A DNA stretch of 15,147 bases, from the NCBI GenBank assembly GCA_030619825.1, contig JAUXAS010000016.1, positions 1 through 15,147 on the forward strand, given 5' to 3'. Shown here piece after piece: positions 181-15,147 of this stretch; the first letter of the stretch is position 1, and each line of letters begins with the position of its first letter. The stretch is from Hadesarchaea archaeon (lineage in GTDB: Archaea; Hadarchaeota; Hadarchaeia; Hadarchaeales; Hadarchaeaceae). The notes beneath the pieces are model-generated. The model was not told the origin of the DNA and ran no database searches. It saw nothing but the letters and a program-made list of their open reading frames with translations. A program made the translations under genes and the position numbers.

Positions 181-612
181 ATGTTAGGGTCTTGGATGAA
201 TCTCAAGCTCAAACGCGATGGTTTAAAGGCAATTGATGGGCACGTGCTGAAAAGTTTCCCCCGCGAGTGTTGTGGGTTACTCCTCGGCAAGTTCGGGGAA
301 AACGTCATCGAGGTTGAGGAGGTCGTCGGGGCTGATAACGTACTCGGCTCACCCGTCGCATTCGAGGCCGACGCGGAGCTGGTGTTCAAGACGATCAAGC
401 GGGCCGAGAAAAGTGGGCTAGAGCTGGTCGGCATTTACCACTCCCACCCCAAAATCGCGGCCTACGTGAGCGCTCGTGACTCGGAAATGATGAAGCTTTG
501 GCAGGGGTTCGCTTGGCTGATTGTCAGCGCGGCGAAGGAGCGAGTCGTCGAGCGAAAAGCGTATATGCCGAAGGATGGCGAGATCGGAGAGTTAGAAATC
601 GCTGTTATGTAA
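181..612 (+). CDS. JAMM/MPN+ (Mov34/JAB) zinc metalloprotease, desampylase/Mec-like
   Basis: PRECCGLLLG carries the catalytic Glu; GIYHSHPKIAAYVSARD fits the JAMM H-x-H-x7-S-x2-D motif. An alternative start is ATG at 196. Confidence 0.92.
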   Translation: MLGSWMNLKLKRDGLKAIDGHVLKSFPRECCGLLLGKFGENVIEVEEVVGADNVLGSPVAFEADAELVFKTIKRAEKSGLELVGIYHSHPKIAAYVSARDSEMMKLWQGFAWLIVSAAKERVVERKAYMPKDGEIGELEIAVM

Positions 613-615
613 GGT

Positions 616-1824
616 TCACTCGATGGTTAGGCCTTGATCCTTAGCTATTTCTAGAAACGCCTTCGCAACGTGCTCCACCTTTGCTTTGGTCAGCCCATAA
701 GTGTTGAGCTTAAAGTGCTTTGTCAGCCCAGGCTGGATCCCAACGATGTTTCTGCGCTTGAGCTCGTCGTACAAGAAGAACCCGCGGCGCTTGTGGGCCT
801 GCGACGCTTTGTAGAGCCCCTCCGACTCCATGTGGGTAAGGGTGTGTTGTTTGGGCTTGACCCCCAGCTGTCGTGTCCCTTCGATTCGCTCGAGCTGCTC
901 GATGAGATACCTAGCTTTTTCCACCTCTTCACCCCAATGCTCTACCCGATCAACCACGTGAGGGAAGGAAGCCATCAGCGAGATAAGCGGGCCACCCATG
1001 ACCGTGCAGCCCAGCAGAGCGTACTCCTTGAGCCCGAATTTGCGCTCGCTCCAGTCGCCCACCATCTTCGACCTCGCCAGCACCCGGTCGACCAGCTCCT
1101 CCTTGAGTGCCAAGATGCCGGTCGGGGCGCTCGCCGCCCATGACTTGTGCCCGCTCGAGACGAGGATGTCCACGTCAAGCTTTTTTCCATCGATAGGCAT
1201 GACGCCACCCGTGTAAGCCGCGTTCAGAATGAAAGGTATTTCATATTTTTTACATATTTTTCCCACTACTGCAGCGTCATTCAGGTTGCCGTATAGATAA
1301 TCGACGTGGGTGAGCAGCACCGCAGCGGGGAGTTTCCCGGTCTCCCGCTTGACCTCCTCTATTTTGTCGGCATATGCATCCAAGTCGAGCTTGAACTCCG
1401 GGTGGCCGCTGTGGGGCACCTCCTTTACTTTAAGTCTGGCGAGTTCTGCGGCTATGTAGGTTGAGTAGTGAGCTAGGCCATCGACGACCACGTAGTCGCC
1501 GGGTTCCCCGAGCGTCGCGAAGGCTATGAATTGTGCTTCCCTGCAGCGCGTCACCACTCGGGCGACGTCCATGCTTAGGAACTCCGCTAGGTCCTGCATG
1601 AACTGGGCTATGGGGGGACGCTCGATGGCGTCGAGCCTCGCAGCCTTCGGCGGGCACCAGTCACAGGTTGAGTACCCGTCGCCGAACTCCAGCAGCGCCT
1701 TCCGCGCGGCATCGGTGAGTACTCCCCCTCGCTGAATGGGGTGGAGGTTGATGTATCGCTCCTCCTTGAATTCGCGCTGGAGGTTGAGATATTTCCCAAG
1801 CCTTTCTTTCGGTATTTTGGTCAT
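616..1824 (-). CDS. pscS: O-phospho-L-seryl-tRNA:Cys-tRNA synthase (SepCysS)
   Basis: INLHPIQRGG and EFGDGYSTCDWC (CxxC), PLP-lysine motif SGHKSWAASAPTGIL, LLGCT third conserved Cys, RGFFLYDELK and FKLNTYGL C-terminal motifs; 402 aa. Confidence 0.96.
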   Translation of the reverse strand: MTKIPKERLGKYLNLQREFKEERYINLHPIQRGGVLTDAARKALLEFGDGYSTCDWCPPKAARLDAIERPPIAQFMQDLAEFLSMDVARVVTRCREAQFIAFATLGEPGDYVVVDGLAHYSTYIAAELARLKVKEVPHSGHPEFKLDLDAYADKIEEVKRETGKLPAAVLLTHVDYLYGNLNDAAVVGKICKKYEIPFILNAAYTGGVMPIDGKKLDVDILVSSGHKSWAASAPTGILALKEELVDRVLARSKMVGDWSERKFGLKEYALLGCTVMGGPLISLMASFPHVVDRVEHWGEEVEKARYLIEQLERIEGTRQLGVKPKQHTLTHMESEGLYKASQAHKRRGFFLYDELKRRNIVGIQPGLTKHFKLNTYGLTKAKVEHVAKAFLEIAKDQGLTIE

Positions 1825-1831
1825 GTGTCAC

Positions 1832-2842
1832 CTACTTGCTACAGACCGGGCAATTTGGGTTCTGTTCGACCCTGAATTCATTAAATGTCATGTTTCTTCC
1901 ATTGAATATCAGCATTCGCCCGACGAGTGGCTCGCCCACTCCCGTGATGAGCTTAATCGCCTCCATCGCCTGCAGGCAGCCGATGACTCCGGGCGTGGCC
2001 CCCAGCACGGGAAAGACGGGCTTTTTTGGGGGCTCTTTGGGTATGGCGCATTTTAAGCATGGGCCCTCGCCCGGTAAAATAGTCATCATTTGACCAACAA
2101 ACCCCTCAACGGCACCATGAACGAAGGGGATGTGGTTGTGCACACAGGTCTCGTTAAGCAGGTAGCGCATGGGATAGTTGTCCATACCATCGACGACGAC
2201 ATCCGCCCCTTTGATGAGTTTATTCACGTTCTTGGGGGTTATTCGCTTGAGCTGGCTATCCACCTTAACGTTGGGATTAATCGCGAGCAACTTTTTGACC
2301 GCTGACTCCGCCTTCGACCGCCCCACATCGAGTTCCCAGTGCAACACTTGGCGGTTGAGATTCGTTAGGTCAACTTGCTGCGCATCGATAATCGTCAAGT
2401 GTCCGACCCCCGCGACGACGAGATAAATCGAAGATGGGCTACCTAACCCCCCCAATCCAGCGACGAATACGTGGGCCCGCTTCAGCTTGAGCTGTCCCCG
2501 CTTGCCGAGACCTGGGATGATGATTTGACGGCTGTAGCGCTTGAGTTCGTCGGACGTGAGCTTGCCCCCAGCTACGGGTGGAAAGATCGCCACCACGTCT
2601 TCGTCTTTTAGTGGAGTGTTCAGCTCTTGTAGGAGACGTATCGGCTTACCGTTCACCAAAATATTCACCGTTCCGCGGAGTTTCCGCGTGCCCGGCGAGT
2701 AAAGTTGTTCGGCCAACCTCTCTTCAAACCTGCGAACGAGCTCATCCAGCAGGGAAGCAACGTTTTTTGCCCCTTCAATCCTTTCCTGTTCCCTCCCCGT
2801 CAGCTCGCGGAAGTTCGCGAAGAACTTCACGGTAATTGCCAT
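1832..2842 (-). CDS. Fusion of a MoaD/ThiS/SAMP ubiquitin-like domain (aa 1-93, ending PPVAGG) and a ThiF/MoeB/UbaA E1-like adenylyltransferase
   Basis: N-terminal VKFFANFRE...ILVNG...VAIFPPVAGG (2842-2564), then LTSDELKRYSRQI, GLGGLG nucleotide-binding loop, TNLNRQ, DGMDN, and Zn-binding CLKC and CPVC. There is no stop codon at the junction. Confidence 0.93.
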   Translation of the reverse strand: MAITVKFFANFRELTGREQERIEGAKNVASLLDELVRRFEERLAEQLYSPGTRKLRGTVNILVNGKPIRLLQELNTPLKDEDVVAIFPPVAGGKLTSDELKRYSRQIIIPGLGKRGQLKLKRAHVFVAGLGGLGSPSSIYLVVAGVGHLTIIDAQQVDLTNLNRQVLHWELDVGRSKAESAVKKLLAINPNVKVDSQLKRITPKNVNKLIKGADVVVDGMDNYPMRYLLNETCVHNHIPFVHGAVEGFVGQMMTILPGEGPCLKCAIPKEPPKKPVFPVLGATPGVIGCLQAMEAIKLITGVGEPLVGRMLIFNGRNMTFNEFRVEQNPNCPVCSK

Positions 2843-2964: not shown

Positions 2965-3040
2965 TGGAGCCGGGGGCCGGATTTGAACCGGCGAATAGCG
3001 GGTCTGCAGCCCACCGCCTTAACCACTAGGCTACCCCGGC
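2965..3040 (-). tRNA. tRNA-Cys: tRNA-Cys (anticodon GCA), 76 nt, CCA encoded, no intron
   Basis: The reverse complement folds as GCCGGGG TA GCCT AGTGGTTA AGGC G GTGGG CT-GCA-GA CCCGC TATTC GCCGG TTCAAAT CCGGC CCCCGGC T CCA: 7-bp acceptor stem, G1-C72, U73 discriminator, G37. Confidence 0.98.
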
Positions 3041-3058: not shown

Positions 3059-3340
3059 TTATCCCCCCGATACAGGTGGAAAAATTGCCACTCCATCACC
3101 GTCTTTCAGGAATGTGTTTAATCCACAGAGAAGGCGTATGCCCTTGCAATTCACCAAAATGTTGACAGTTTCGAGTAATTCCCGTGTCCCCGGCGAGTAC
3201 AGCTGCTTGGCTAGCTTGTCCCCGAACCTACGAACGAGCTCGTCTAACAGAGAGGAGACATTTCCCACTCCTTCAACACTCTCCTGCTCTTTTCCAGTTA
3301 TCTCACGAAAATTCGCGAAGAATTTTACTATGATTGCCAT
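3059..3340 (-). CDS. Free MoaD/ThiS/SAMP1-family ubiquitin-like sulfur carrier (93 aa, C-terminal GG)
   Basis: MAIIVKFFANFREITG...VAIFPPVSGG*. ATG at 3340 has GGTGA upstream and aligns with the paralog start, so it is preferred over the ORF-track start at 3358. Confidence 0.93.
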   Translation of the reverse strand: MAIIVKFFANFREITGKEQESVEGVGNVSSLLDELVRRFGDKLAKQLYSPGTRELLETVNILVNCKGIRLLCGLNTFLKDGDGVAIFPPVSGG

Positions 3341-4134
3341 CGATCTCTCACCACGCATTGGGGTTCTAAAATGGAAAGTAAATCTGTATCATATGCTCGA
3401 TATTTTCTTGAAGTGGTTGAGAGCTCTCCTTCAGATGAGACTTGGATTAGCTTTGGTAATTTACCAGAAGTGCCGATGTAGTCCTCTTTCATGACCAAAC
3501 AGCCTCGAATTTTCGGGGTAGCGTCAGCTCGGTCTAAGCCTCGTTTGATCGACGCTTCAACATCCGTTCCCTCCACTGCATTTGCTACGGATGTTGCCGC
3601 GGCGTCAGCAATCGATGCCTCACGTGCGATTACGACGACAGCGTCCGCATCACCAAAACTTACAGAATGCCCCACCGTGCCTGAACTCGTGCAAATGCCT
3701 ATTGGCAGCTCCTTTCCTTGAACGAGAAAACCTATTTTCCCAGAAATTTTTGCTTTCCCCGCATAGATCCCCACGCGAAATTCCTGATTCCCAATGATGG
3801 AGATGTCGCCACCGTTTTCGACCAAAACATTCTTGGCACCCACACTGATCGCTGCCTCAGTCGCGACCTGCGAGATCGCCCCAGCAACGGCCGCAAATGG
3901 GCCAACATCCGCAAGCAGTGCGGCTCTAAGCATCAATCCTATTATCCTCGGATACCCCTCCGCGTTCAGGCGCAGCGGCTCGAGTGAGTATCTAAATTCC
4001 GGATGCCTAACTATGAATCTCTCAATGCAACGCCTAGCTTCAAGAGCTGCGCTCACGGCCGCGTTTATTGCCTGCTCGGTGCCCGATTTGACTACTAGGT
4101 TTGTTTCCTTGAATGACCATGCACGAGTGTACAT
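3328..4134 (-). CDS. UPF0280 / COG2122 ApbE-like protein (MA1715-type sulfide-assimilation protein)
   Basis: VGPFAAVAGAIS, VENGGDI, GICTSSGTVGHSVSFGDADAVVV and ADAAATSVAN motifs; adjacent to the COG1900 and NIL-ferredoxin genes. Confidence 0.93.
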   Translation of the reverse strand: MYTRAWSFKETNLVVKSGTEQAINAAVSAALEARRCIERFIVRHPEFRYSLEPLRLNAEGYPRIIGLMLRAALLADVGPFAAVAGAISQVATEAAISVGAKNVLVENGGDISIIGNQEFRVGIYAGKAKISGKIGFLVQGKELPIGICTSSGTVGHSVSFGDADAVVVIAREASIADAAATSVANAVEGTDVEASIKRGLDRADATPKIRGCLVMKEDYIGTSGKLPKLIQVSSEGELSTTSRKYRAYDTDLLSILEPQCVVRDRWQS

Positions 4135-4150: not shown

Positions 4151-4552
4151 TCAAAATTTTGATATCTCGAGCGCTCTCACCGGACAAGACGGTACACAGA
4201 TTTCGCAGTAAATGCACTTGTCCTCGTCGAGTTCGATTGAATAATCATCGGTCAACCGGAGTGCCCCGGTGGGACAGAGCGAGAGGCACGCACCGCAGTC
4301 GAAACATTTTTCCTCATCGAGCTGAATTGCACGTTTGAGTTCCTTGGTCTCGATTCCATTTTGTTCGAAAAGTTCGATGGCCCGCTTCGCTTCTGCATCG
4401 GGAGCGTCGATTGCGAGCAGGATCTCCCCACCCTCTGCGTCGAACTTCGCATGTAGGATGTTCATAAGCGTACCCGTCTCCTTGATGATCAAGGCCAGTA
4501 TCGGTTTCTTTGCCTTTTCAGCCGAATATTTTAATAGTACTTTCTTCGTCAC
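4151..4552 (-). CDS. NIL-domain 2[4Fe-4S] ferredoxin, Fe-S subunit of L-aspartate semialdehyde sulfurtransferase (MA1822/MJ0099-like)
   Basis: PILA...NILHA NIL domain, then CFDCGACLSLCP and CIYCEICVPSCP. The GTG start overlaps the upstream TGA (GTGA at 4549-4552). Confidence 0.93.
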   Translation of the reverse strand: MTKKVLLKYSAEKAKKPILALIIKETGTLMNILHAKFDAEGGEILLAIDAPDAEAKRAIELFEQNGIETKELKRAIQLDEEKCFDCGACLSLCPTGALRLTDDYSIELDEDKCIYCEICVPSCPVRALEISKF

Positions 4553-6063
4553 CTTCTTCGCCTCCCGATCAGCTTTGATATGTCTTCGCTCGTGAGGATA
4601 CCTCTCAACTCCCCCCCTGTACTCACCACCGGGACTCCCGAAATCCCGTGCGTTTCAAGCTTCCTCGCAATCGCGTCGATGGGTTCATTCTCGGACGCCA
4701 CGATGACCTTGGAAGTCAATATCTCCGATAGTCTCCTCTTGCCAGTTCCGACCGCTACTGCAATGTCCCATGAGGTCACGATGCCCACGAGCTTCCCTTT
4801 TTCATCGACGATTGGCAGGTGGTCAAAGTTTTGTTTCGAGAATATCTTCGCCGCGCTGGTGATCGAATCGCTTGGTTTGGCGGTTACTACCTCCCTTGTC
4901 ATCAAGTCTTTGGCAACAGGGGCAGCGGTAATTTGTCTCATCGGCTGGAACACTTGGTCCGTCGATAGCCCTTCAACTGTTTGGGTGAGGAAAAACTTTT
5001 TGTCTTCGATCCACTTTTTCAGGGTGCCAGCAATTTCTCTTGCCTGCTTCAAGCTGCTAAGAGGACTGACTGGTATCTCCTTTCCCCCAACTTCAACTCT
5101 CCCCGATTTCAGCTCGGCGTACGTGACTTCCCTTAGGATCGGGCGCTCCCTCCTCGGAACCCCATAATCAGTGAGATTGGTCCTTATCTCCTCATCGCTG
5201 ATGCCAGTCGTCTTAGCAACGCGCTCGTTTATGATCGGGATGGGAATACCCAAGCCGACGTATAGCGAGGTCCCGTATCCTTCGATCGTCGCCCCCCTGA
5301 TGTAGCGCGCGTCCATCTCCTTGAGGTCTCCGATGGTCATGATGGTCCCCATTGCTTTGGTCGGCGCGTGCTGGGTGCCCTCCCAGAAGATGTAGCCTTG
5401 GGCACCACCTAGGAAGATTCGCGTCCCGACGCCAATTGTTTCGTAATTTGGGTCGTTGTGCAGCGGGCTAAGAGCACCGGAGCCGGAGTAGGTCACGTTG
5501 CCGTAGTTCGGCAGCAGGGTGCCCATGTAAGTGTAGATCGTTTCATCGCGCGAGTTTGTGGCCGCGACGTATCGCTGGTAAGCATTGCGCGGGTTACAGA
5601 GCACCGCCTGATTTAAATCATCCTTGGTCACGGTGGTTTCGAGCTCCTTGCGTGGATAGCAGTCGGTACCGTACGCTATCGCCTTGACCTCGATTTCCTG
5701 CCCTCGGACCAAATCTTCGATGACATGCCCGCCGCCGTACTCAAAGCCGCGGGTCTCGCTTAGCTGGGTGGCGCCTATGTATGCATCGACGGCAGCGACG
5801 CCGCTGTAAGCTTCGACATCGTTGAGCCAGAGGCGCTGCATTTTAATCGGCGGGTCAGCATGCCCGAAGTTCAACCAGGCTCCCGAGCTGCACATCGCCC
5901 CGAAGGTACCGGTGGCGACGACATCTACTTCTTTGGCAGCCTCGACTTCACCCCTTTCCCTCACGATTTCTACCATTTCCTCCGCTGTCACGACCACCGC
6001 ATCGCCGCGCTTGATTCGGTCGTTTATCGCGGCTACCGACTTGTTCACCTTTGTTTTGGTCAA
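4549..6063 (-). CDS. L-aspartate semialdehyde sulfurtransferase (homocysteine biosynthesis, COG1900/DUF39 + CBS pair; MA1821/MJ0100-like)
   Basis: VVVTAEE, VDVVATGTFGAMCSSGA, YGGGHVIEDLV, YGTDCYPRK, NPRNAYQ, YTYMGTLLP and two C-terminal CBS repeats. TTG start preceded by GGGGTG. Confidence 0.95.
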   Translation of the reverse strand: MTKTKVNKSVAAINDRIKRGDAVVVTAEEMVEIVRERGEVEAAKEVDVVATGTFGAMCSSGAWLNFGHADPPIKMQRLWLNDVEAYSGVAAVDAYIGATQLSETRGFEYGGGHVIEDLVRGQEIEVKAIAYGTDCYPRKELETTVTKDDLNQAVLCNPRNAYQRYVAATNSRDETIYTYMGTLLPNYGNVTYSGSGALSPLHNDPNYETIGVGTRIFLGGAQGYIFWEGTQHAPTKAMGTIMTIGDLKEMDARYIRGATIEGYGTSLYVGLGIPIPIINERVAKTTGISDEEIRTNLTDYGVPRRERPILREVTYAELKSGRVEVGGKEIPVSPLSSLKQAREIAGTLKKWIEDKKFFLTQTVEGLSTDQVFQPMRQITAAPVAKDLMTREVVTAKPSDSITSAAKIFSKQNFDHLPIVDEKGKLVGIVTSWDIAVAVGTGKRRLSEILTSKVIVASENEPIDAIARKLETHGISGVPVVSTGGELRGILTSEDISKLIGRRRR

Positions 6064-6172: not shown

Positions 6173-8641
6173 TTATTCTGAAGAGTATGAGGGCGCAATA
6201 GTAACCCGCTTTAGTAGGTTGGCATTGCTCACCACGGATATCGAACTCGTCGCCATCGCCAGCTCCGCTATGACCGGATGAAGTAGCCCGAAGATCGCAA
6301 GGGGTATCACGGCGGTGTTGTAACCGAATGCCCAGAAGAGGTTCTGTTTAATCTTTCGGAACGTCGCCCGCGACAGCTTTATAGCGCTAACCACACTTGA
6401 GAGGTCACCCCGCACTAGGATGATGTCGCCAGCCTCGATTGCGATATCCGTGCCAGTACCGATTGCAATGCCAACGTTTGCTTGGGTAAGCGCAGGAGCA
6501 TCATTGATTCCATCACCCACCATCGCCACCATCCCGACCTCCCCCTGTAGATGCTTGATCTCCGCTACCTTTTGGTCAGGTAACACTTCTGCCAGCACGC
6601 GGTCGATGCCCACCTGTCGCGCGATGGCGTTGGCGGTGCGCGGGTTATCACCCGTAATCATGACGGTTTTGAGCCCCATTTTATGTAGCTCCTTAATCGC
6701 CTGCACAGAGTCCTCCTTCAGCGTGTCGGCCACCGCGCAGACCCCAGCGAGCTTCCTGCCCGAAGCGACGAGCACAGCGGTCTTGCCCTCATCTTCGAGG
6801 TGCTTCAGCTCATTCTCGAGTGGTGCGACGTTTATGCCAGCTTCTTTCAGGAAGAGACGATTTCCCACTAAGATTTGCTTTCCATTGATGGTGCCTCGAA
6901 TGCCCTTCCCTCGCACCGCTTTGAATCCCCTAAGCTTCGCGAGCTTGAGCTTCTTGGCATGTGCTCCCTCGACTATGGCCTTAGCGAGGGGGTGCTCGGA
7001 GCCTGCTTCAACGCTCGCTGCCAGCCCCAGGACCTCGCGCTGGGCGAAATCCCTCGTCGCAACGACGTCGGTCAGTGCTGGCTTTCCCTGGGTGATGGTG
7101 CCGGTTTTATCGAAGACTATCGTGTGCACGTCCTTGAGCGTCTGGATGGCCTCGCCCTTTCGGATGATGATGCCGTTCTCGGCGCCCAAGCCGCTCCCGA
7201 CCATCAGCGCGGTAGGTGTCGCCAGGCCAAGAGCGCAGGGACAGGCGATGACGAGTACGGCGACCGTGGCGAAGATTGCGAGGGTGAACACACCTAACGT
7301 TGGGTCGACCCAAGGTAGGAATGATTGTGCCCAGTTGGCGATGACCCCTATGAAACCCGGCACGACCATCCAGAGGATGAAAGTTGTCGTGGCGATGAGC
7401 AGCACAGCAGGCACGAAGTAGCTAGTGACCTTGTCCGCAAACTCTTGGATTGGAACCTTGGTCCCTTGGCACTCTTCGACCATTTTGATTACTTGCGAGA
7501 GGAAGGTGTCTTTTCCGACCTTCGTGGCCTTGATTTTGAGCAGGCCCTCTTGGTTTACCGTGGCCCCAATGGCCTCGCTCCCCTTCTTTTTACGAACAGG
7601 CATCGACTCACCCGTTGCCATCGACTCATCGACCGAGCTCTCTCCCTCGATTACTACTCCATCAGTTGGGATTTTCTCCCCGGGTCGAACGACCATCACA
7701 TCACCCACTTTCACCTCCTCGATCGGGACTTCCTTCTCCTTCCCCTTGACGAGAATACGGGCAGATTTGGCTTCAAGCATCAGGAGGCGCTTGATAGCCT
7801 GCGATGCCCGTCCCTTGGCCTTGGCCTCCACATACCTCCCGGTTAGGTGGAAGGACATGATCATCGCGGCGACTCCCGCGTAGTTCAGGATAGGAACTCC
7901 GAAGAAAATGGGTGGACCAGTGAGGAATGCTATCGAGGTTCCCATCATGATAAGGACATCCATGTTCGCGGTCTTGTGAGCAATAGATTTCACAGCAGAA
8001 CGAAGTGTCGACAAGCCGGCCCAAAACAGGACAGGCACAGCAAGCAGTATCAATCCGAGGTCGTATATCTCCCGACTCGGCCAGACCACGCCGAAGATCA
8101 TTTCGGCGATCATCCAGATGACGATGGGGATTGTGAAACCCCATCCCACGAACATGCGCACGCGAGCCTTCTGCATCTCCACCAGTGACTTGTCTACTTC
8201 CTCTTCCTCGCTCACGCCGTATCCCGCGTCCTGGACCGCCGTTCGGAGATCCATCAGCGTCGCGATTTTTGGGATATATTCGACCGTTGCCTTTTCGGTC
8301 GCCAAGTTGACGCTAGCACGCTTTACCCCCTTGAGGCTCGAAAGGGCTTTTTCGACCTTTGCAGCGCAGGCAGCGCATGTCATCCCCGTAATCTTCAAAC
8401 TGATTTCGCGCGTTCGTTCCTCCCCGATGCCGACAGGAGTGTAACCAGTCGCTCTGATTGTTTTTCCAAGTTGATCAAGATTCACTTTTGTCTCGTCGTA
8501 GTCGACCGTGGCCTTTTCGGTGGCAAAGTTAACGTTAGCATTGATTACCCCTTTCTGACCTTTGAGGGCTTTCTCGATACTTTGGGCGCAGCTCACACAG
8601 TGCATCCCGCTGATGCGGATGGTGGTCTTCTTTTTTGCCAT
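6173..8641 (-). CDS. copA: Cu(I)-translocating P1B-1 type ATPase
   Basis: Two HMA domains (GMHCVSC, GMTCAAC), [35 protein letters not shown] and MATSS transmembrane ligands. Confidence 0.97.
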
Positions 8642-8662
8642 GTTTACTAACTTTCTTTTTAC

Positions 8663-8680
8663 GATATATAATATTTAACA
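8663..8680. promoter_or_regulatory. AT-rich TATA region, probably the promoter of a leaderless copA transcript (possibly bidirectional)
   Basis: GATATATAATATTTAACA lies about 22-39 nt upstream of the copA ATG; copA has no evident RBS. Confidence 0.5.
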
Positions 8681-9000
8681 AATGGCACGGATCCGAGGCT
8701 GTTGCTGAACTCGTCAAGTTGGAAGGACCATCGATTGTTGTCGAGCTAAGCGGCCCATTTTGTAGGACTTGCGGCCTTTATGATTACTTCGACGACCTAA
8801 AGCTCGAGCTCGAAAAGGTGCTCGGAAAGCCGTTGGAGATTGCACAAGCCGATAGCGGCGGTGACGAGCGTTACGTGATTACCTACAAGATTGGGGGTGA
8901 GCATTTGAAATCAAGGGGTCACCGAGAAAAGCTGATTTTTAGCAGGCAGCCGGGGTCGAGCAAAACCGTCGCGCAAAAAATAAAAGGGGTTAATCGGTAA
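8674..9000 (+). CDS. Conserved archaeal hypothetical CxxC protein (NifU-C-like GPFCRTCG motif); start unclear, possibly 5'-truncated
   Basis: [46 protein letters not shown] looks like real protein. The only upstream start (TTG 8635) overlaps the copA start and runs through its promoter; the next in-frame start is TTG 8719. Confidence 0.6.
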
Positions 9001-9019
9001 ATCAAATGGATGGATATAG

Positions 9020-9268
9020 ATGGCCCAACCTCAATCGAACGTAAAAATCTACACAACTCCTACGTGTCCCTACTGTGTAATGGCCAAGGCGTTTCTAAAG
9101 GAGCATGGAGTCCCATTCGTTGAAAAGAACGTTGGGGCAGATAGGGCCGCGGCAACTGAAATGATGGAGAAATCCGGCCAAATGGGCGTGCCGGTACTTG
9201 ATATCAACGGCGAGATAATCGTCGGCTTCGATCGAGATGCCATAAAAAAAGCGCTCAAACTGCCATAA
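9020..9268 (+). CDS. Glutaredoxin-like protein (NrdH/YruB type)
   Basis: VKIYTTPTCPYC, SGQMGVPV cis-Pro motif, IVGFD; 82 aa. Confidence 0.95.
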   Translation: MAQPQSNVKIYTTPTCPYCVMAKAFLKEHGVPFVEKNVGADRAAATEMMEKSGQMGVPVLDINGEIIVGFDRDAIKKALKLP

Positions 9269-9277
9269 GGGGCACCC

Positions 9278-9463
9278 ATGCTAGTAACGAAAATTCGCTG
9301 CCCGATGTGCGGACACGTGCAGGAGATAGAAGTGCCAGAAAATGCGTGCCTGCCGTTTTACAAGTGCAATGGATGTGGCGAATTGATTCAAACGCCTACC
9401 GACACTTGTTGTGTAATATGTGCATACTCAGAAACGAAGTGCCCCGCCTCAAGTTTGAGGTGA
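9278..9463 (+). CDS. Small Cys-rich metal-binding protein, GDCCVxC-family-like
   Basis: CPMCG...PENACLPFYKCNGCG...DTCCVICAYS..KCP has 9 Cys in 61 aa and matches the CPxCG/ACxxFYxCxxC/DCCVxCxY/CP pattern. Confidence 0.8.
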   Translation: MLVTKIRCPMCGHVQEIEVPENACLPFYKCNGCGELIQTPTDTCCVICAYSETKCPASSLR

Positions 9464-9467
9464 GGAA

Positions 9468-10382
9468 ATGTATGAGTTGATAATAGTTGGCGCGGGGCCA
9501 GCCGGGATAACGGCTTCGATCTATGCAGCCAGAAAGCGGATGAATTTCCTCGTGATAGCGAAGGACATCGGTGGGCAGGCAGCGCTCAGCTCTGATATCG
9601 AAAACTACACCGGTTATCAGTACATCACGGGACCCGAACTGACTAAGAAGTTCGAGCAACACATGCATGAATTTCAGATCGAGTTGAAGTACGAGGAGGT
9701 CATGGGGATCGAGAAGGCGGATGAAGGATTCAAAGTGAAAACTGATAAGGGCATCCATGAGTCAATGGCGCTGATCATCGCTTCCGGCGCGAAACCTAGG
9801 AAACTGAACGTGCCGGGTGAACAAGAGTTTAAGAACCGTGGCGTCACTTACTGCGCGACTTGCGATGCCCCGTTATTCCCCGATAAGGATGTGGTAGTTA
9901 TCGGTAGTGGCAACTCTGGACTCGATGCGACTTTGCAGCTCATGAAAATCGCGAACAAGATCTACTTGATCGAACGCGGGTCAAGGCTGACAGGTGACGA
10001 GGTGACGATGCGTGAAAAAGTCGAGCGCAGCGATAAGGTGACTGTTCTTACCAACACTAAGGTGCTCGAAATATCAGGCGACAAATTTGTCACAGGTGTA
10101 ACGGTGGAGCGGGAGGGGAAGCAGGAAATGCTCGGGGTGCAGGGAGTTTTCATCGAAGTAGGCTACATCCCAAACTCGGAGTTCGCGGCCGAAGTGGTTA
10201 AGCTGAACGAGCGAAAGGAGATCGTCGTTGATGACCGCTGCCGAACGAGCGTCGATGGAATCTTTGCCGCTGGCGATGTCACGGACGTGCCGCAAAAGCA
10301 GATCATCGTGGCTGCAGGGGAAGGGGCAAAAGCGGCCTTGTGTGCACACGAATATATGCAGAAGCAGAAGAAGCGCCCATAG
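9468..10382 (+). CDS. trxB: Thioredoxin/disulfide reductase (TrxB/AhpF C-terminal-like)
   Basis: GAGPAG, GGQ...IENYTG, GVTYCATCDAP, GSGNSG, GIFAAGD, KQIIVAAGEG; RBS GAGGTGA upstream. Confidence 0.93.
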   Translation: MYELIIVGAGPAGITASIYAARKRMNFLVIAKDIGGQAALSSDIENYTGYQYITGPELTKKFEQHMHEFQIELKYEEVMGIEKADEGFKVKTDKGIHESMALIIASGAKPRKLNVPGEQEFKNRGVTYCATCDAPLFPDKDVVVIGSGNSGLDATLQLMKIANKIYLIERGSRLTGDEVTMREKVERSDKVTVLTNTKVLEISGDKFVTGVTVEREGKQEMLGVQGVFIEVGYIPNSEFAAEVVKLNERKEIVVDDRCRTSVDGIFAAGDVTDVPQKQIIVAAGEGAKAALCAHEYMQKQKKRP

Positions 10383-10423
10383 GTTTTCACCCCCGGAGTT
10401 TAGGTTATAAGTGGGGAAACAAA

Positions 10424-11200
10424 ATGGGAAAAGTCGTTGTTATTACTGGTTCTGGGAGAGGGATAGGCAAAGCAACGGCATTAGCTTTTGCCAAAGAGGG
10501 ATACTCTGTGGTGACTAACGACAAGTACGCAAAGCCTGCAGAGGATGTTGCAAAAGAAATAATCGAGAAAGGGGGGACGGCCTATCCGATACGTGCCGAT
10601 ATATCTAATCCTGCTGAGGTAGATCAACTCATCACCGGTGCGGTTGAGAAGTTTGGCAGGATAGACGTTTTGGTCAATAATGCGGGAATACAAAATCCCA
10701 AAGAATTTCTAGAAATGTCGGTGGAGGAATGGAAATCGGTAATCGATGTCAACCTTACTGGCACGTTTCTCTGCAGTCAACGCGCAGCCAGATGCATGGC
10801 TAAGCAAGGAGGCGGATTGATAATAAATATTTCATCAGTCCATCAAGTCATCCCCCGACCACTATACGCCCATTATGCCGCCTCAAAGGGCGGAGTAAAT
10901 CTTTTGACTGAAACGATGGCGTTAGAACTCTCCGATAAGAACATCAGAGTAAACGCAATTGCACCCGGAGCGATAGAGACCGACATGAACAAAGACATTA
11001 TGGCGGATATCAAGAAAAAACGGGAGCTTCTGTCGATGATACCCATGCACAGGATGGGCAAACCCGAGGAGATCGCTGACATGGCCGTCTTTCTAGCTTC
11101 AGACAAGGCCAAATACGTCACTGGAGCTACTTTCTTCGTGGACGGCGGATTGACGCTATACCCAAGTTTTTGCATCCACTGTAAACAAGCAATGATTTGA
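10424..11200 (+). CDS. SDR-family oxidoreductase, glucose 1-dehydrogenase-like
   Basis: TGSGRGIG, LVNNAG, SSVHQVIPRPLYAHYAASKGG (Gdh-type YxxxK context), VDGGLTLYPSF. The true start is probably ATG 10424 rather than 10340. Confidence 0.85.
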   Translation: MGKVVVITGSGRGIGKATALAFAKEGYSVVTNDKYAKPAEDVAKEIIEKGGTAYPIRADISNPAEVDQLITGAVEKFGRIDVLVNNAGIQNPKEFLEMSVEEWKSVIDVNLTGTFLCSQRAARCMAKQGGGLIINISSVHQVIPRPLYAHYAASKGGVNLLTETMALELSDKNIRVNAIAPGAIETDMNKDIMADIKKKRELLSMIPMHRMGKPEEIADMAVFLASDKAKYVTGATFFVDGGLTLYPSFCIHCKQAMI

Positions 11201-11208
11201 GTGTTAGA

Positions 11209-12984
11209 ATGGCTTTAGATTATGGGATTATCGGGAATCGTCAGACCGCGGCGCTGATTTCCAGCAAGGGCAGCATAGACTGGTGTTGCTTTCCAAGGTT
11301 TGACTCGCCTTCTGTGTTTGCTAAATTATTGGATAACCAAAAAGGAGGATCCTTTGAAATAATACCGACAGGCCAATACGTAACTGAACAGACTTACGTT
11401 AAAAATACCAACGTGTTATCTACCTCGTTCAAATCCCAGCATGGCGAATTTGAGGTGTTAGATTTCTTTTCATGCCATGTTGGACAGCAAAGGGAGTTTG
11501 AGAGCTTCCAGGAAATACACCGGATAATTAAGGTGCGCAAAGGCAACCCGAAGGTCAAATTCAAATTCGATCCGAGATTTAATTATGCAAGGGACAAGCC
11601 CGATTTGTACGAGAAAAATGGCGCCATAGTTGCTGAAGGTGAAAAGGAAAAATTGTTTCTGAACACGGACTTGGCCCCAGAGGGCATAATTAAGAGAAAA
11701 GCGACAGGGCTTGAAGGAGAAGCATTTTTCATTTTATCTTACAATGATGTCTTCCATACTCGCTTGGCAGAGTCGAAAAAGTTGTTGAAACGGACGATTG
11801 ACTTTTGGCGTAGCATTATCAAGAGGACAAGTCTCCCAAGTAAGTATAAAGAGCACGTTATTAGATCCGTTCTCGTTTTAGAGCTGTTGAGGTATGAAAA
11901 ATCCGGAGCAATCATCGCCGCCGCCACCACTTCCCTTCCAGAAATAATCGGGGAGGGAAGGAATTGGGATTATAGATACTGTTGGCTCAGGGATGCCGCA
12001 CTCACTGTAGATGCGTTTACAAAAGTATGCCACTTTGATGAAGCTAGAAAGTTTATGAAGTGGTTGGTGAGGTGTTGCGAACAATTACAAACCGTGCGCG
12101 GTGTAGAAGGAGGAATGGAACTCCCAGAAAAAATACTGGGCCACCTTGATGGATATAGGAAATCTAGGCCCGTAAGGATAGGCAACGACGCTTACAAACA
12201 AATACAAAATGATGTATATGGTGAGGTCTTGGAAAGTATCTACAGGTTCTTTGTTGAATACAAATACATGCGAGAAATGACGCCTAAGCAGTGGACAAGT
12301 ATGGTTCAGTGGGTAAATGCAGCGGCCGAGTTGTGGAAGAAAAAGGATCACGGCATATGGGAGTTTAGGAAGAAGGAAGGCCACTATACATTTTCCAAGT
12401 TGTTGTGCTGGGTTGCTCTAGATAGGGGAGTAAAACTAGCCTTAAAACTCAGAGCTCCGGAGCAGGCAGCAAAGTGGAAAAAGATAGCGAAGGAGATAAG
12501 GGAGGACATTCTGCAAAACGGTTGGAACGAGAAGATAAAGTCGTTTACTCAAAAGTATGGCTCGGATGATTTAGATGCGAGCCTTCTTTTAATCCCCCAT
12601 TTCGGGTTTTTACCTCCAAAGCATCCAAAGGTTTTGTCAACTATGGATAAAATAGATGAAAAGCTTAGAGAAGAATGTTTTGTTTATCGGTACAAGGCTG
12701 AGGACGATTTCGGCAAACCCAAAAATGCATTTATTCCATGTACGCTGTGGTTTGTGGAAGCGATGTATCTTACGGGTAGAAAAAAGCGTGCGAGAAAAAT
12801 GTTTGAAGATTTATTAAATTATTCCAACCACCTAGGGTTGTTTTCAGAAGACATTGACCCCTCTACAAAGGAATTACTGGGCAACTTCCCTCAAGCATAT
12901 ACTCATTTAGCTTTGATCAACGATGCGATTATGCTAAGTGAAGGGGCCGTTAAAAAACCTCTGTGTGAAATAAGACTCGAATAA
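11209..12984 (+). CDS. Glycoside hydrolase family 15 (trehalase/glucoamylase-like)
   Basis: YGIIGN, GSIDWCCFPRFDSPSVF, AAATTSLPE, RNWDYRYCWLRD, GIWE, LFSEDID...LGNFPQAYTH. ATG at 11209; alternative TTG at 11197. Confidence 0.95.
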   Translation: MALDYGIIGNRQTAALISSKGSIDWCCFPRFDSPSVFAKLLDNQKGGSFEIIPTGQYVTEQTYVKNTNVLSTSFKSQHGEFEVLDFFSCHVGQQREFESFQEIHRIIKVRKGNPKVKFKFDPRFNYARDKPDLYEKNGAIVAEGEKEKLFLNTDLAPEGIIKRKATGLEGEAFFILSYNDVFHTRLAESKKLLKRTIDFWRSIIKRTSLPSKYKEHVIRSVLVLELLRYEKSGAIIAAATTSLPEIIGEGRNWDYRYCWLRDAALTVDAFTKVCHFDEARKFMKWLVRCCEQLQTVRGVEGGMELPEKILGHLDGYRKSRPVRIGNDAYKQIQNDVYGEVLESIYRFFVEYKYMREMTPKQWTSMVQWVNAAAELWKKKDHGIWEFRKKEGHYTFSKLLCWVALDRGVKLALKLRAPEQAAKWKKIAKEIREDILQNGWNEKIKSFTQKYGSDDLDASLLLIPHFGFLPPKHPKVLSTMDKIDEKLREECFVYRYKAEDDFGKPKNAFIPCTLWFVEAMYLTGRKKRARKMFEDLLNYSNHLGLFSEDIDPSTKELLGNFPQAYTHLALINDAIMLSEGAVKKPLCEIRLE

Positions 12985-13149
12985 AAAATAATTGTTGAAT
13001 TGATTGGGCCGGTCAATTATCATGCCTTTTCTTAACTTCTCGGGGTACCTCAGAACCCACCTCATTTTTAACACCCTTTCCAGCTGATTAAAGGCTAAAA
13101 TAAAGAGGTACCGGACCTTCCCTAGCAGGAATCATTGTATACAAAGAAG

Positions 13150-13167
13150 GGAAGTCACTTATATGAA
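13150..13167 (+). promoter_or_regulatory. Putative TATA promoter for the second trxB
   Basis: TTATATGAA at 13159-13167, about 30 nt before ATG 13195, with RBS AGGTGA at 13184-13189. Confidence 0.45.
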
Positions 13168-13194
13168 TAAAAACTCCATTTCAAGGTGAGAAAA

Positions 13195-14127
13195 ATGGCA
13201 CAATGGGATTTAATCGTCATCGGAGCGGGGCCAGCTGGACTCACCGCCAGTATATACGGTGTTAGAAGCGGACTCAAAACCCTAATCCTCGAGGAGAAAA
13301 TTCCTGGAGGGGCCGCTGCTGAATCCCCCCTGATTGAAAACTATCCAGGCTTTCTCTCCATCAGCGGTCATGAGTTGGTCAGCAAGATGGTGGAACATTG
13401 CAAAAAATTCGAGGTGCCGATTAACCAACTCGAGAAGGTCGTTGAACTGGACATCAGAGGTGAGAAAAAGGTGGTGAAAACCGAAAGAACCTCATACACG
13501 GCTTCCGCCATCATCATCGCTTCCGGCTGTCATCACCAGGAGCTCAGGGTGCCAGGCGAAAGCGAGTTTCGCGGCAGGAAGGTCAGTTATTGCGCGGTTT
13601 GCGATGGAGCTTTCTTCAAAGGTAAGAGGGTGATCGTTGTGGGCGGAGGAAATTCGGCAGCTGGTTCTGCTATATTCATATCGAACCTAGCGTCTGACGT
13701 TAAGTTGGCTCACCGAAAGGATCGACTGAGGGCGGAGGAAGCTCTCGCTAAAGATTTGCGGGAGCGAAAGGTGGAGATACTGTGGAACACGGAGCTCAAG
13801 GAAATTAAGGGCGACACCAAGGTTAAGAGCGTCCGCCTATTTGACAACAAAAATGGCGAGACCAAAGAAGTAAAAATCGACGGTGTATTCATCCAGGCGG
13901 GGGAAATCCCCAACAGCCAAATCGCAAAGGAAGCCGGAGTAAAGGTAGACAATAGCGGCTACATCATCGTGGACGAGCAACAGAGAACTAACGTCAGAGG
14001 CGTGTACGCCGCAGGTGACGTGACTGCAGGTCGCGTGAAACAGATTGGAGCGGCTGTTGGGCAAGCAATCGAGGCGGCTATCGATGCTTTTGGTTACATT
14101 AAGAAGCCCTATTACTACAAGGGCTGA
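13195..14127 (+). CDS. trxB: Thioredoxin reductase (NADPH-type)
   Basis: GAGPAG, IENYPG, VSYCAVCDG, GGGNSA, HRKDRLRA, GVYAAGD. ATG 13195 follows the RBS; the ORF-track GTG at 13186 lies inside the RBS. Confidence 0.94.
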   Translation: MAQWDLIVIGAGPAGLTASIYGVRSGLKTLILEEKIPGGAAAESPLIENYPGFLSISGHELVSKMVEHCKKFEVPINQLEKVVELDIRGEKKVVKTERTSYTASAIIIASGCHHQELRVPGESEFRGRKVSYCAVCDGAFFKGKRVIVVGGGNSAAGSAIFISNLASDVKLAHRKDRLRAEEALAKDLRERKVEILWNTELKEIKGDTKVKSVRLFDNKNGETKEVKIDGVFIQAGEIPNSQIAKEAGVKVDNSGYIIVDEQQRTNVRGVYAAGDVTAGRVKQIGAAVGQAIEAAIDAFGYIKKPYYYKG

Positions 14128-14148
14128 CCACACTCGTTTAACGGCAAA

Positions 14149-14562
14149 CTAGAGATGCTGCGTTATCTTCGGTTCTAATATCTTTTTTGGCATCGCCCCT
14201 ATGATCCGGTCTACGAGTTTCCCATTTTTGAACACCAACAGCGTGGGGATACTCATTATTTGGTGCTCCAAGGCGACCGATTTGTTCTCATCCACGTTCA
14301 GTTTCCCGAATGATATTCTTCCAGCGTACTCTCGCGCCAGCTCCTCTAAGATAGGAGCAACCATGTGGCATGGGGCACACCAAGGTGCCCAGCAGTCAAC
14401 CACTACTAGGGGATGGTTATGGATCATCTCTCTAAACTTCGTGTCGGTTAGCTCTATGGGTTTATTCGGGGCTGATTTCTCTTCCTTGGTTTCGCCGGCT
14501 TTTTTCATTAGTTCCCTCAATTTCTTTTCTCGTATCCTTTTGAGCTCTTCGTTCTGTTCCAT
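14149..14562 (-). CDS. trxA: Thioredoxin with a charged N-terminal helical extension
   Basis: VVDCWAPWCAPCHM, KLNVDEN, SIPTLLVFKNG, IIGAMP; N-terminus ELKRIREKKLRELM. Confidence 0.95.
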   Translation of the reverse strand: MEQNEELKRIREKKLRELMKKAGETKEEKSAPNKPIELTDTKFREMIHNHPLVVVDCWAPWCAPCHMVAPILEELAREYAGRISFGKLNVDENKSVALEHQIMSIPTLLVFKNGKLVDRIIGAMPKKILEPKITQHL

Positions 14563-14590
14563 AAGTACCCTAAACCATTCCGTTACGTCG

Positions 14591-14606
14591 CATTTTATAT
14601 TTTGTT
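14591..14606. promoter_or_regulatory. Candidate shared TATA element between the divergent trxA and aor genes
   Basis: CATTTTATATTTTGTT reads TTTTATAT on + and CAAAA-TATAAAA on -, about 31-38 nt from both start codons in a 75-bp gap. Confidence 0.5.
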
Positions 14607-14637
14607 AAGGCTCCAGAAGAACTCTGAGGTTGATGAC

Positions 14638-15147
14638 TTGTTTGGTTATACCGGCAAGCTCCTATGCGCCGACCTGACTGGTAGTAAAATCGAAGAAACC
14701 AAAACGCCCGAAAAGCTTGCTCGCGCTTTCCTCGGTGGGCGTGGATTTGGGGCGGCTTTGCTTTACAAGGAACTTAAACCGAATGTCAACCCGCTCTCGC
14801 CCGATAACGTCTTAATCCTCATGACCGGTCCTGCTACCGGCACCCCCTTGCCGGCGTGTCCGCGTTGGGAAGCGACTACGAAATCCCCGCTGACGAACAT
14901 GTACCTCTGCTGTTCGGTGGGTGGCTTCTTTGGCGCGGAGCTGAGGTCCGCCGGCTACGACGGCATCATCGTGCGAGGCAAGGCCGAGAGCCCAACCTGG
15001 CTAAGCATCCTAGACGGCAAAGCCGAGCTTCACGATGCAGGCGAACTCTGGGGGCTGACGACCGAGGAGACCGAGGTCGCGGTCCGAAAGGAGCTCAAGG
15101 ACAAACGCGCGCGCGTCGCCAGCATAGGGCAGGCAGGCGAAAATCTC
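14638..15147 (+). CDS. aor: Tungsten/molybdopterin aldehyde:ferredoxin oxidoreductase family protein, 5' part (runs off the window)
   Basis: Not in the ORF track. TTG at 14638 after GAGGT gives MFGYTGKLLCADLT...FLGGRGFG...PLSPDN...TGPATG...KSPLT...GGFFGAELRSAGYDGIIVRGKA...LWG...SIGQAGENL, open to the end of the window. Confidence 0.93.
   Translation, partial: MFGYTGKLLCADLTGSKIEETKTPEKLARAFLGGRGFGAALLYKELKPNVNPLSPDNVLILMTGPATGTPLPACPRWEATTKSPLTNMYLCCSVGGFFGAELRSAGYDGIIVRGKAESPTWLSILDGKAELHDAGELWGLTTEETEVAVRKELKDKRARVASIGQAGENL

Follow-up and report, generated by a model that had tools for sequence, protein, structure and literature searches.

A ubiquitin-like carrier joined through Gly-Gly to its own E1 in Hadarchaeota: a candidate JAMM-processed precursor

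The fused gene and its operon

Why does a ubiquitin-like (Ubl) protein run, through a complete C-terminal Gly-Gly, directly into its own activating enzyme? The question is raised by a 336-aa open reading frame (ORF) at 2842-1832 on the minus strand of the window, that is, of the whole 15,147-nt stretch of Hadesarchaea DNA analysed here, in which a MoaD/SAMP-type Ubl is joined without a linker to a MoeB/ThiF-type E1 adenylyltransferase (Pfam ThiS at aa 5-93, ThiF at aa 103-333). The Ubl part (2564..2842, minus strand; aa 1-93, ending AIFPPVAGG) matches Pfam ThiS at 3.8e-18 and exceeds the cut-offs of TIGR01687 (moaD_arch) and NF041918 (SAMP1). The E1 part (1832..2563, minus strand; aa 94-336) matches Pfam ThiF at 7e-74. 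The adenylation motifs of MoeB/ThiF E1s, namely the RYxRQ helix, the GxGGxG loop, an SNLNRQ-like motif and two CxxC pairs, are all intact, as judged by invariant columns and alignment to ThiF and MoeB. These two enzymes are also the best PDB matches of the domain, and a fold search with the model of the fusion returned only ThiF/MoeB/Uba4-type folds. In the AlphaFold2 monomer (mean pLDDT 71), values fall below 50 at the junction (residues 90-106) and in the crossover loop.

The Cys in the crossover loop of an E1 is the residue that forms the thioester. Such a Cys is present in the aligned ThiF and MoeB sequences, but it is absent from the E1 in all 46 aligned fused rows. Nor was a rhodanese domain detected, either in the fused ORF (Pfam) or in the 89%-complete genome of the window. 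The E1 scores 248 bits against the UbaA model (NF047750; cut-off 450), and this shortfall, together with the missing crossover-loop Cys, means that a role in protein conjugation of the UbaA/SAMP type is not supported.

The fusion lies in a minus-strand gene series. It opens with HcyBio, the homocysteine-biosynthesis sulfur-incorporating enzyme, which carries a CBS pair (4549..6063; Pfam HcyBio 6e-151, CBS), and continues with a 4Fe-4S ferredoxin with a NIL domain (4151..4552; Pfam NIL, Fer4) and a PRK04334-family protein (3328..4134; NF003321 255 bits, just below the cut-off of 262), which we take to be UPF0280/COG2122. A free Ubl paralog (3059..3340) and a tRNA-Cys(GCA) (2965..3040; ARAGORN) then precede the fusion, and SepCysS (616..1824; TIGR02539 and PRK09331 over cut-off) follows it; a JAMM gene on the opposite strand converges on SepCysS. 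In 13 fetched regions of relatives the core genes keep the order HcyBio, NIL-ferredoxin, PRK04334, Ubl, E1, SepCysS, and SepRS/SepCysS have been placed in Hadesarchaea before (PMC5424206). The free paralog, by contrast with this conserved core, occurs as an insert together with tRNA-Cys at the operon position only in the window's genome (G000) and one relative (G019), with a similar pair on a short contig of G025. It is identical to the fused Ubl at 70 of 93 aa and ends in a Gly-Gly followed by a stop codon; the earlier note had read this end as GGG GGA TAA G, correctly. At conserved sites it carries Cys for the invariant Gly65 and Gly for Val83, and it may be drifting after a duplication that accompanied the tRNA-Cys insertion. 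The remainder of the window (6173-15147) encodes a copper-type P-ATPase, a glutaredoxin, two thioredoxin reductases, a thioredoxin, an SDR protein, a GH15 glycosidase of lower GC content (41-45%) and the first part of an aldehyde ferredoxin oxidoreductase, an enzyme likely to be served by the pterin cofactor pathway.

Is the joint real? The reading of the earlier note, that the Ubl runs directly into the E1 as GGG GGC AAG CTC at 2569-2558, is borne out by the sequence: the junction (2555..2569, minus strand) encodes Gly92-Gly93|Lys94-Leu95-Thr96 (GGG GGC AAG CTC ACG), with the predicted scissile bond directly behind Gly93. Contigs from four runs of four studies (X2, X3, X4 and X9) bridge position 2564 with 0 other letters, a count that leaves out X1 as the possible source data. 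A contig from an RNA library (X20, 2493-2743) spans the junction with 5 other letters, its presence in such a library not amounting to transcription. No junction-bridging piece was found among the matches listed for X6, and the RNA runs X21 and X24 gave no matching piece at the locus. Full ThiS+ThiF fusions at 64-95% identity make up 45 of the 120 best homologue clusters, some of them with the source name Hadesarchaea. Across the 46 aligned fused rows the tail AIFPPVxGG is invariant (A85-V90, G92 and G93 identical in 46/46), while the residue after Gly-Gly is free to vary (G in 19, K in 10, R in 6, A in 5, Q in 3, V in 2, S in 1) and the junction tolerates one extra residue. An assembly error or a private stop-loss mutation, an explanation to which same-genus relatives with TAG at the junction codon lend some colour, is thus rejected as virtually inconceivable, given contigs from four studies that bridge the junction unchanged and 45 fused clusters that reach down to 64% identity with seven different residues behind the Gly-Gly. 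The fusion is real, conserved and of known architecture.

Such an architecture had been called not unprecedented, which holds but understates how common it is. Hadarchaeota contain a second type of Ubl-GG-E1 fusion (367 aa), whose E1 is 43-49% identical and has the crossover-loop Cys. It adjoins a JAMM gene in five genomes, and its loci (L084:2014-3117 in G017; L085-L092) usually lie beside one. The contig scan with this type covered 20 loci, none from Thaumarchaeota, so that its JAMM linkage was assessed within Hadarchaeota. In this second type and its bacterial relatives, Gly-Gly is kept in 89/89 fused proteins, of which 86 were scored by pattern and 3 by eye, and it precedes RYxR by 8-38 residues; in the window's type it precedes RYxRQ by 8-9. 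Three further observations concern single genomes. In G017, the second type sits behind a putative threonine-synthase homologue. G031 carries the second type split by a stop (L098). In G025, an extra copy of the junction (G025:C43:3304-3342) has one additional G in its Gly-Gly run, which puts the E1 out of frame and may be an error or mark a slippage site.

A stop/sense switch after Gly-Gly

The codon behind the Gly-Gly is a natural switch, described here for the first time: it is a sense codon in the fused lineages and TAG in sister lineages. Across 66 genomes of the phylum, the 30 top-ranking loci comprise 12 fused and 7 amber loci, 4 that are split and start the E1 with ATG, and 7 stand-alone E1s. 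All 7 amber loci share the sequence Gly-Gly-TAG-CTT/CTC-ACG; the E1 follows in the same frame, and a canonical start codon is missing ahead of RYxRQ. A pattern scan of metagenomes, which captures 8-codon spacers only, found 53 loci; after the 24 without an E1 match had been dropped, the remaining 29 divided into 19 fused and 10 amber.

What, then, does AAG replace? It had been proposed to stand where a stand-alone ThiF has its ATG. This is incorrect: in the split relatives TAG sits at the Lys94 codon, so AAG takes the place of the Ubl stop and not of the E1 start. The E1 start position of split relatives corresponds to the Thr96 codon, two codons past the stop, and is either ATG or probably ACG; stop and ATG are directly adjacent only in the distant genomes of family f4. 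In the fusion, the internal Gly-Gly marks the precise end of the Ubl, where the split orthologues have their stop; the fused Ubl and the free Ubl of the split lineages are orthologues (67-75% identical). A stop at the junction in relatives had been named in advance as a finding that would point to an error or a private mutation. Such stops were indeed found, yet they represent an alternative state shared by a whole lineage and standing next to 45 fused clusters, which supports the reading of two products rather than that of an error.

How is the E1 of the amber lineages made? The codon after TAG varies (L, I or P), but the next one is ACG in 17/17 amber loci. This invariance does not by itself prove a start codon, since 8 of 36 four-fold sites are likewise invariant in the 13 amber sequences and the pattern is not significant alone. 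Other observations make initiation at ACG likelier than readthrough. First, no machinery for decoding the amber codon was found: PylS is over cut-off in none of the 8 genomes with a TAG-CTx junction (66-95% complete), arguing against pyrrolysine, and a pattern search for an amber suppressor tRNA in five amber genomes gave 7 matches, none with a CTA anticodon (ARAGORN called one of them tRNA-Sec and two unassigned tRNAs, and made no call on four). Second, TAG is an ordinary stop in these genomes: it ends the NIL-ferredoxin, PRK04334 and SepCysS genes at homologous ends, and genome-wide recoding is thereby rejected. Third, one genome (G012) has ATG at the Thr96-equivalent position, and some database proteins of the amber clade have a canonical start codon at this place, while more than 20 others have been called truncated. 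Fourth, a GGAGGT/GGGGGT run made up by the Gly codons lies six bases ahead of ACG. Finally, near-cognate starts seem to be tolerated in this lineage, as suggested by the HcyBio start position, which lies behind a G-rich run and is CTG in five relatives (L134, L139, L140, L143 and L146) and TTG in the window (6063) and others. Translational coupling across very short gaps is documented in archaea (PMC10666635); the accessible part of a review of archaeal initiation mentions neither ACG nor CUG (PMC7531240).

The probable conserved ACG start (or amber readthrough) extends over two genera (L008:1777-1788; L009, L010, L012, L013, L014, L016, L043, L050, L055, L071, L074, L076 and L077). It would have been missed by gene callers, so that database entries of these E1s lose the RYxRQ helix. 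Two side observations bear on unusual decoding elsewhere in the phylum. PylS is over cut-off in 2 of the 66 genomes, both of genus g8 (G037:C6:24676-25341, G038:C22:3355-4071), and tRNA-Sec or Sec-like tRNAs occur in three Hadarchaeota genomes (L156:1452-1543 in G016; L154; L155), with two pattern matches lying 1.6 kb apart in G016.

Could the fused alleles, too, yield free E1 if ribosomes began internally at the Thr96 codon, the Gly-Gly codons serving as their binding site and the full-length protein being secondary? The window has ACG at this codon, which is also the apparent start in the amber lineage. In a set of 26 distinct fused DNA sequences, however, the codon is ACG in just 12 (ACA in 11, ACC, ATA and GCA in one each), the second Gly is encoded by GGC in 21 of the 26 as against GGT in 12 of 13 amber sequences, and a free Ubl would not be supplied in this way. 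We regard this route as very improbable.

A precursor for the neighbouring JAMM?

The candidate maturase is encoded at 181..612 on the plus strand, convergent on SepCysS: a JAMM/MPN+ metalloprotease (Pfam Prok-JAB) whose best PDB match is JAMM1 (5ld9/5lda). Its motif, E...HSHx7Sx2D, is intact under the published definition E-xn-HSH-x7-S-x2-D (PMC5925218), and the catalytic columns are invariant in 26 orthologues. A JAMM of the window's type occurs in 30 of the 66 genomes: in 18 of the 22 with any Ubl-GG-E1 fusion, in 0 of the 11 with a split adjacent pair only, and in 12 without a detected fusion. All four fusion genomes that lack it have a contig end within or next to the cluster. None of the seven amber loci, all assembled past SepCysS, has a JAMM gene downstream of SepCysS; one genome (G021) does have the protease, there adjoining a second, fused E1. 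A more distant JAMM is retained by 4 of the 11 split-only genomes (split genomes being 66-95% complete).

These counts should not be read as independent observations: the genomes are kin, which invalidates a Fisher p computed on them. In a 26-row Ubl+E1 tree rooted on family f4, split forms are basal and the amber clade (100/100) is nested inside the fused clade (96/95). JAMM and fusion thus compare over two state changes, that is, two independent pairs, for which a sign test gives p 0.5. The tree was also considered for the direction of the second switch, but was set aside for this purpose as monophyly of the fused forms is not rejected (AU p 0.07).

Together, the data favour the reading that the fusion is a polyprotein from which a JAMM releases a 93-aa carrier and a 243-aa E1 within a homocysteine/SepCysS/tRNA-Cys operon, to which we assign a probability of about 70%. 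The precursor role was part of the earlier note's proposal. Four indirect lines now speak for it, with cleavage itself predicted from sequence: the Gly-Gly is invariant next to a free P1' residue; sister lineages have a natural stop at the predicted scissile position; the JAMM of the operon co-distributes with fusions; and the MoaD of the same genome ends in GG-TS. In the sister lineages the stop lies exactly at the joint, and no copy of that JAMM gene was found. In addition, the operons of five fused relatives (G018, G020, G041, G027 and G028) lack a free Ubl, and the only MoaD-type Ubl found in G015 and G018 is the fused one. A complex prediction of the JAMM with two fusion chains lends weak support: it scored 0.35 against 0.13 for the best control, with a run agreement of 66% or more and a partner pLDDT of 79 or more. 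A score at this level is rated more often wrong than right unless the complex is likely beforehand: 116 of 157 solved pairs and 2 of 215 mismatched pairs attained the mark, whereas scores up to 0.60 were given to 18 of these solved pairs and to both mismatches. The score may reflect mere likeness to solved JAMM-SAMP structures (5lda).

How might the system work? The JAMM would cleave the linear GG|K bond after Gly93 and thereby free a carrier of 10.5 kDa and an E1 of 26.5 kDa (computed masses). The genome of the window (89% complete) yielded in profile searches one E1, one JAMM and five Ubl domains, and the fused E1 is its only ThiF match over cut-off. Once free, this E1 would probably adenylate its own Ubl as well as others of the genome, among them the MoaD beside MoaE (G000:C6:2890-3171) and a ThiS-type Ubl on contig C33, which lies beside a TIGR00269/TtuA-type gene and ends in a free Gly-Gly. 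Another Ubl (G000:C95:5291-5485) continues for about 17 residues past GGG, and both this protein and the MoaD would need trimming; the GG-TS end of the latter implies that linear processing behind Gly-Gly is needed in this cell anyway. The adenylate would be converted to a thiocarboxylate with no E1 thioester, as suggested by the missing crossover-loop Cys and rhodanese. Its sulfur may go to molybdopterin, to thio-tRNA and perhaps to the homocysteine and Cys-tRNA enzymes of the operon, with conserved synteny as the sole link of Ubl-COSH sulfur to SepCysS and HcyBio. Fusion and stop codon would then be two routes to the same two products, one via a protease and the other via translational coupling.

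Does the JAMM instead serve other purposes, such as trimming of GG-extended Ubls, removal of sampylation or release of Ubl-amino-acid adducts, with the fusion being cut partly or by another protease and the co-distribution incidental? Its presence in 12 genomes without a detected fusion implies that it does have other jobs, free Ubls with an extension past Gly-Gly are common in the phylum (one genome with them, G022, is without the window-type JAMM), and just two independent events underlie the association. The amber lineage, on the other hand, keeps Ubl, E1, HcyBio and SepCysS in unchanged order with no JAMM after SepCysS, so that adduct release for the operon cannot be the essential job of the protease, and we hold this account to be rather improbable. 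GG-extended free Ubls were also tried as a marker for the window-type JAMM and dropped, being mixed among the matches listed.

Alternatively, the fusion may stay uncut, its N-terminal Ubl acting as a docking, autoinhibitory or passenger domain and its E1 serving free Ubls. A free paralog is encoded 220 bases upstream, the ThiS-type Ubl on C33 offers a free Gly-Gly, and Ub-like domains on certain ThiF proteins have been argued to differ in role from stand-alone ThiS (PMC1779556). Moreover, Ubl and E1 have no linker between them, so that the bond abuts helix 1 of the E1 and may be hard to reach; conservation of the Gly-Gly is also expected if an uncleaved tail binds an E1; and should the amber E1 arise by readthrough, an uncut fusion would work without the window-type JAMM. 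Against this stand the nature of the operon's free paralog, an extra copy in few genomes, the orthology of the fused Ubl to the free Ubl of split lineages with a complete GG tail in 46/46 rows, and an adjacent JAMM that tracks the fusion. Overall, a permanently uncut protein appears unlikely.

The preferred precursor reading can be taken one step further, to a zymogen. The tethered Ubl would block the cell's only E1 until the JAMM cuts, gating all thiocarboxylate sulfur flux including the sulfur for SepCysS-made Cys-tRNA. A sister lineage would have dropped the protease through a stop at the scissile codon and a restart of the E1 at the conserved ACG (or amber readthrough), a one-codon swap of proteolytic for translational control. 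We put this forward as a doubtful, speculative extension.

Relation to known systems

Ubl-E1 fusions occur widely. In Hadarchaeota they come with a control supplied by nature: orthologous operons in which a single codon, at the predicted cut, is either sense or stop and a JAMM is either present or not found. This one-codon pair of fused and split alleles, tracking a neighbouring protease, makes a long-predicted processing step directly testable. It also supplies defined reagents with which to examine whether a Ubl thiocarboxylate is a source of sulfur for SepCysS or for homocysteine synthesis. If true, our proposal would extend the logic of ubiquitin precursors to a carrier fused to its own activator. 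A literature search conducted largely outside subscription journals found neither a test of Ubl-E1 fusion cleavage nor an account of a stop/sense switch at such a joint, and the accessible parts of PMC4569737 and PMC11354881 add nothing on Ubl-E1 fusions. A general prediction made in 2006 was that fused ThiS/MoaD is set free by JAB proteins (PMC1779556).

The closest architectural relatives are the MoaD-MoeB fusions, known from 67 archaeal assemblies (cluster 356.1: Thaumarchaeota, Rokubacteria, NC10; among the rows listed in the supplement, Hadesarchaea appear with one fused and two split genomes; PMC11237513). Thaumarchaeota carry Ubl-E1-TBP fusions, with both JAB arCOGs present in both genomes (PMC2948915). 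Like these MoaD-MoeB proteins, the Hadarchaeota fusion has an N-terminal MoaD-type Ubl that retains its Gly-Gly and is followed by a MoeB/ThiF domain. Unlike them, its clade lacks a C-terminal extra domain and the crossover-loop Cys, shows the shortest spacing seen (8-9 residues against 8-38), resides in a HcyBio/SepCysS operon and has split sister alleles with a stop at the corresponding codon. Bacterial MoaD-MoeB-rhodanese fusions are further kin, from which the clade differs, as it does from E1-rhodanese enzymes of the MoeZ/MOCS3 type, in having no rhodanese. With Haloferax UbaA/SAMP the window's genome shares one E1 for several Ubls, a SAMP1-like Ubl over the NCBIfam cut-off and a JAMM; the E1 itself departs from UbaA in the score and loop Cys described above.

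For the proposed cut, two kinds of precedent exist. HcyS/HcyD are a sulfur-carrier precursor and the JAMM of its cluster that trims it. Likewise, QbsE/QbsD and CxnE/CxnF exemplify JAMM trimming of carrier extensions (PMC5925218). In systems of the QbsE/QbsD type the cluster JAMM exposes the Gly-Gly of a carrier for sulfur incorporation; the MoaD-GG-TS of the window's genome fits this kind, whereas the 'extension' in the fusion is a whole 243-aa enzyme instead of 1-10 residues. The other precedent is MoaD-MoaE, whose carrier is inactive until a JAMM cuts after the last Gly: HvJAMM1 cleaves a linear engineered SAMP1-MoaE at exactly this point, in vivo and in vitro (PMC4443979), and Deinococcus DRJAMM is a further processor of MoaD-MoaE (PMC8832034; cited in PMC11237513). 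The window shares with it the linear Ubl-GG-enzyme arrangement and a JAMM with the same motif in the genome. Here, however, cleavage is predicted, and the partner is not MoaE but the Ubl's activating E1.
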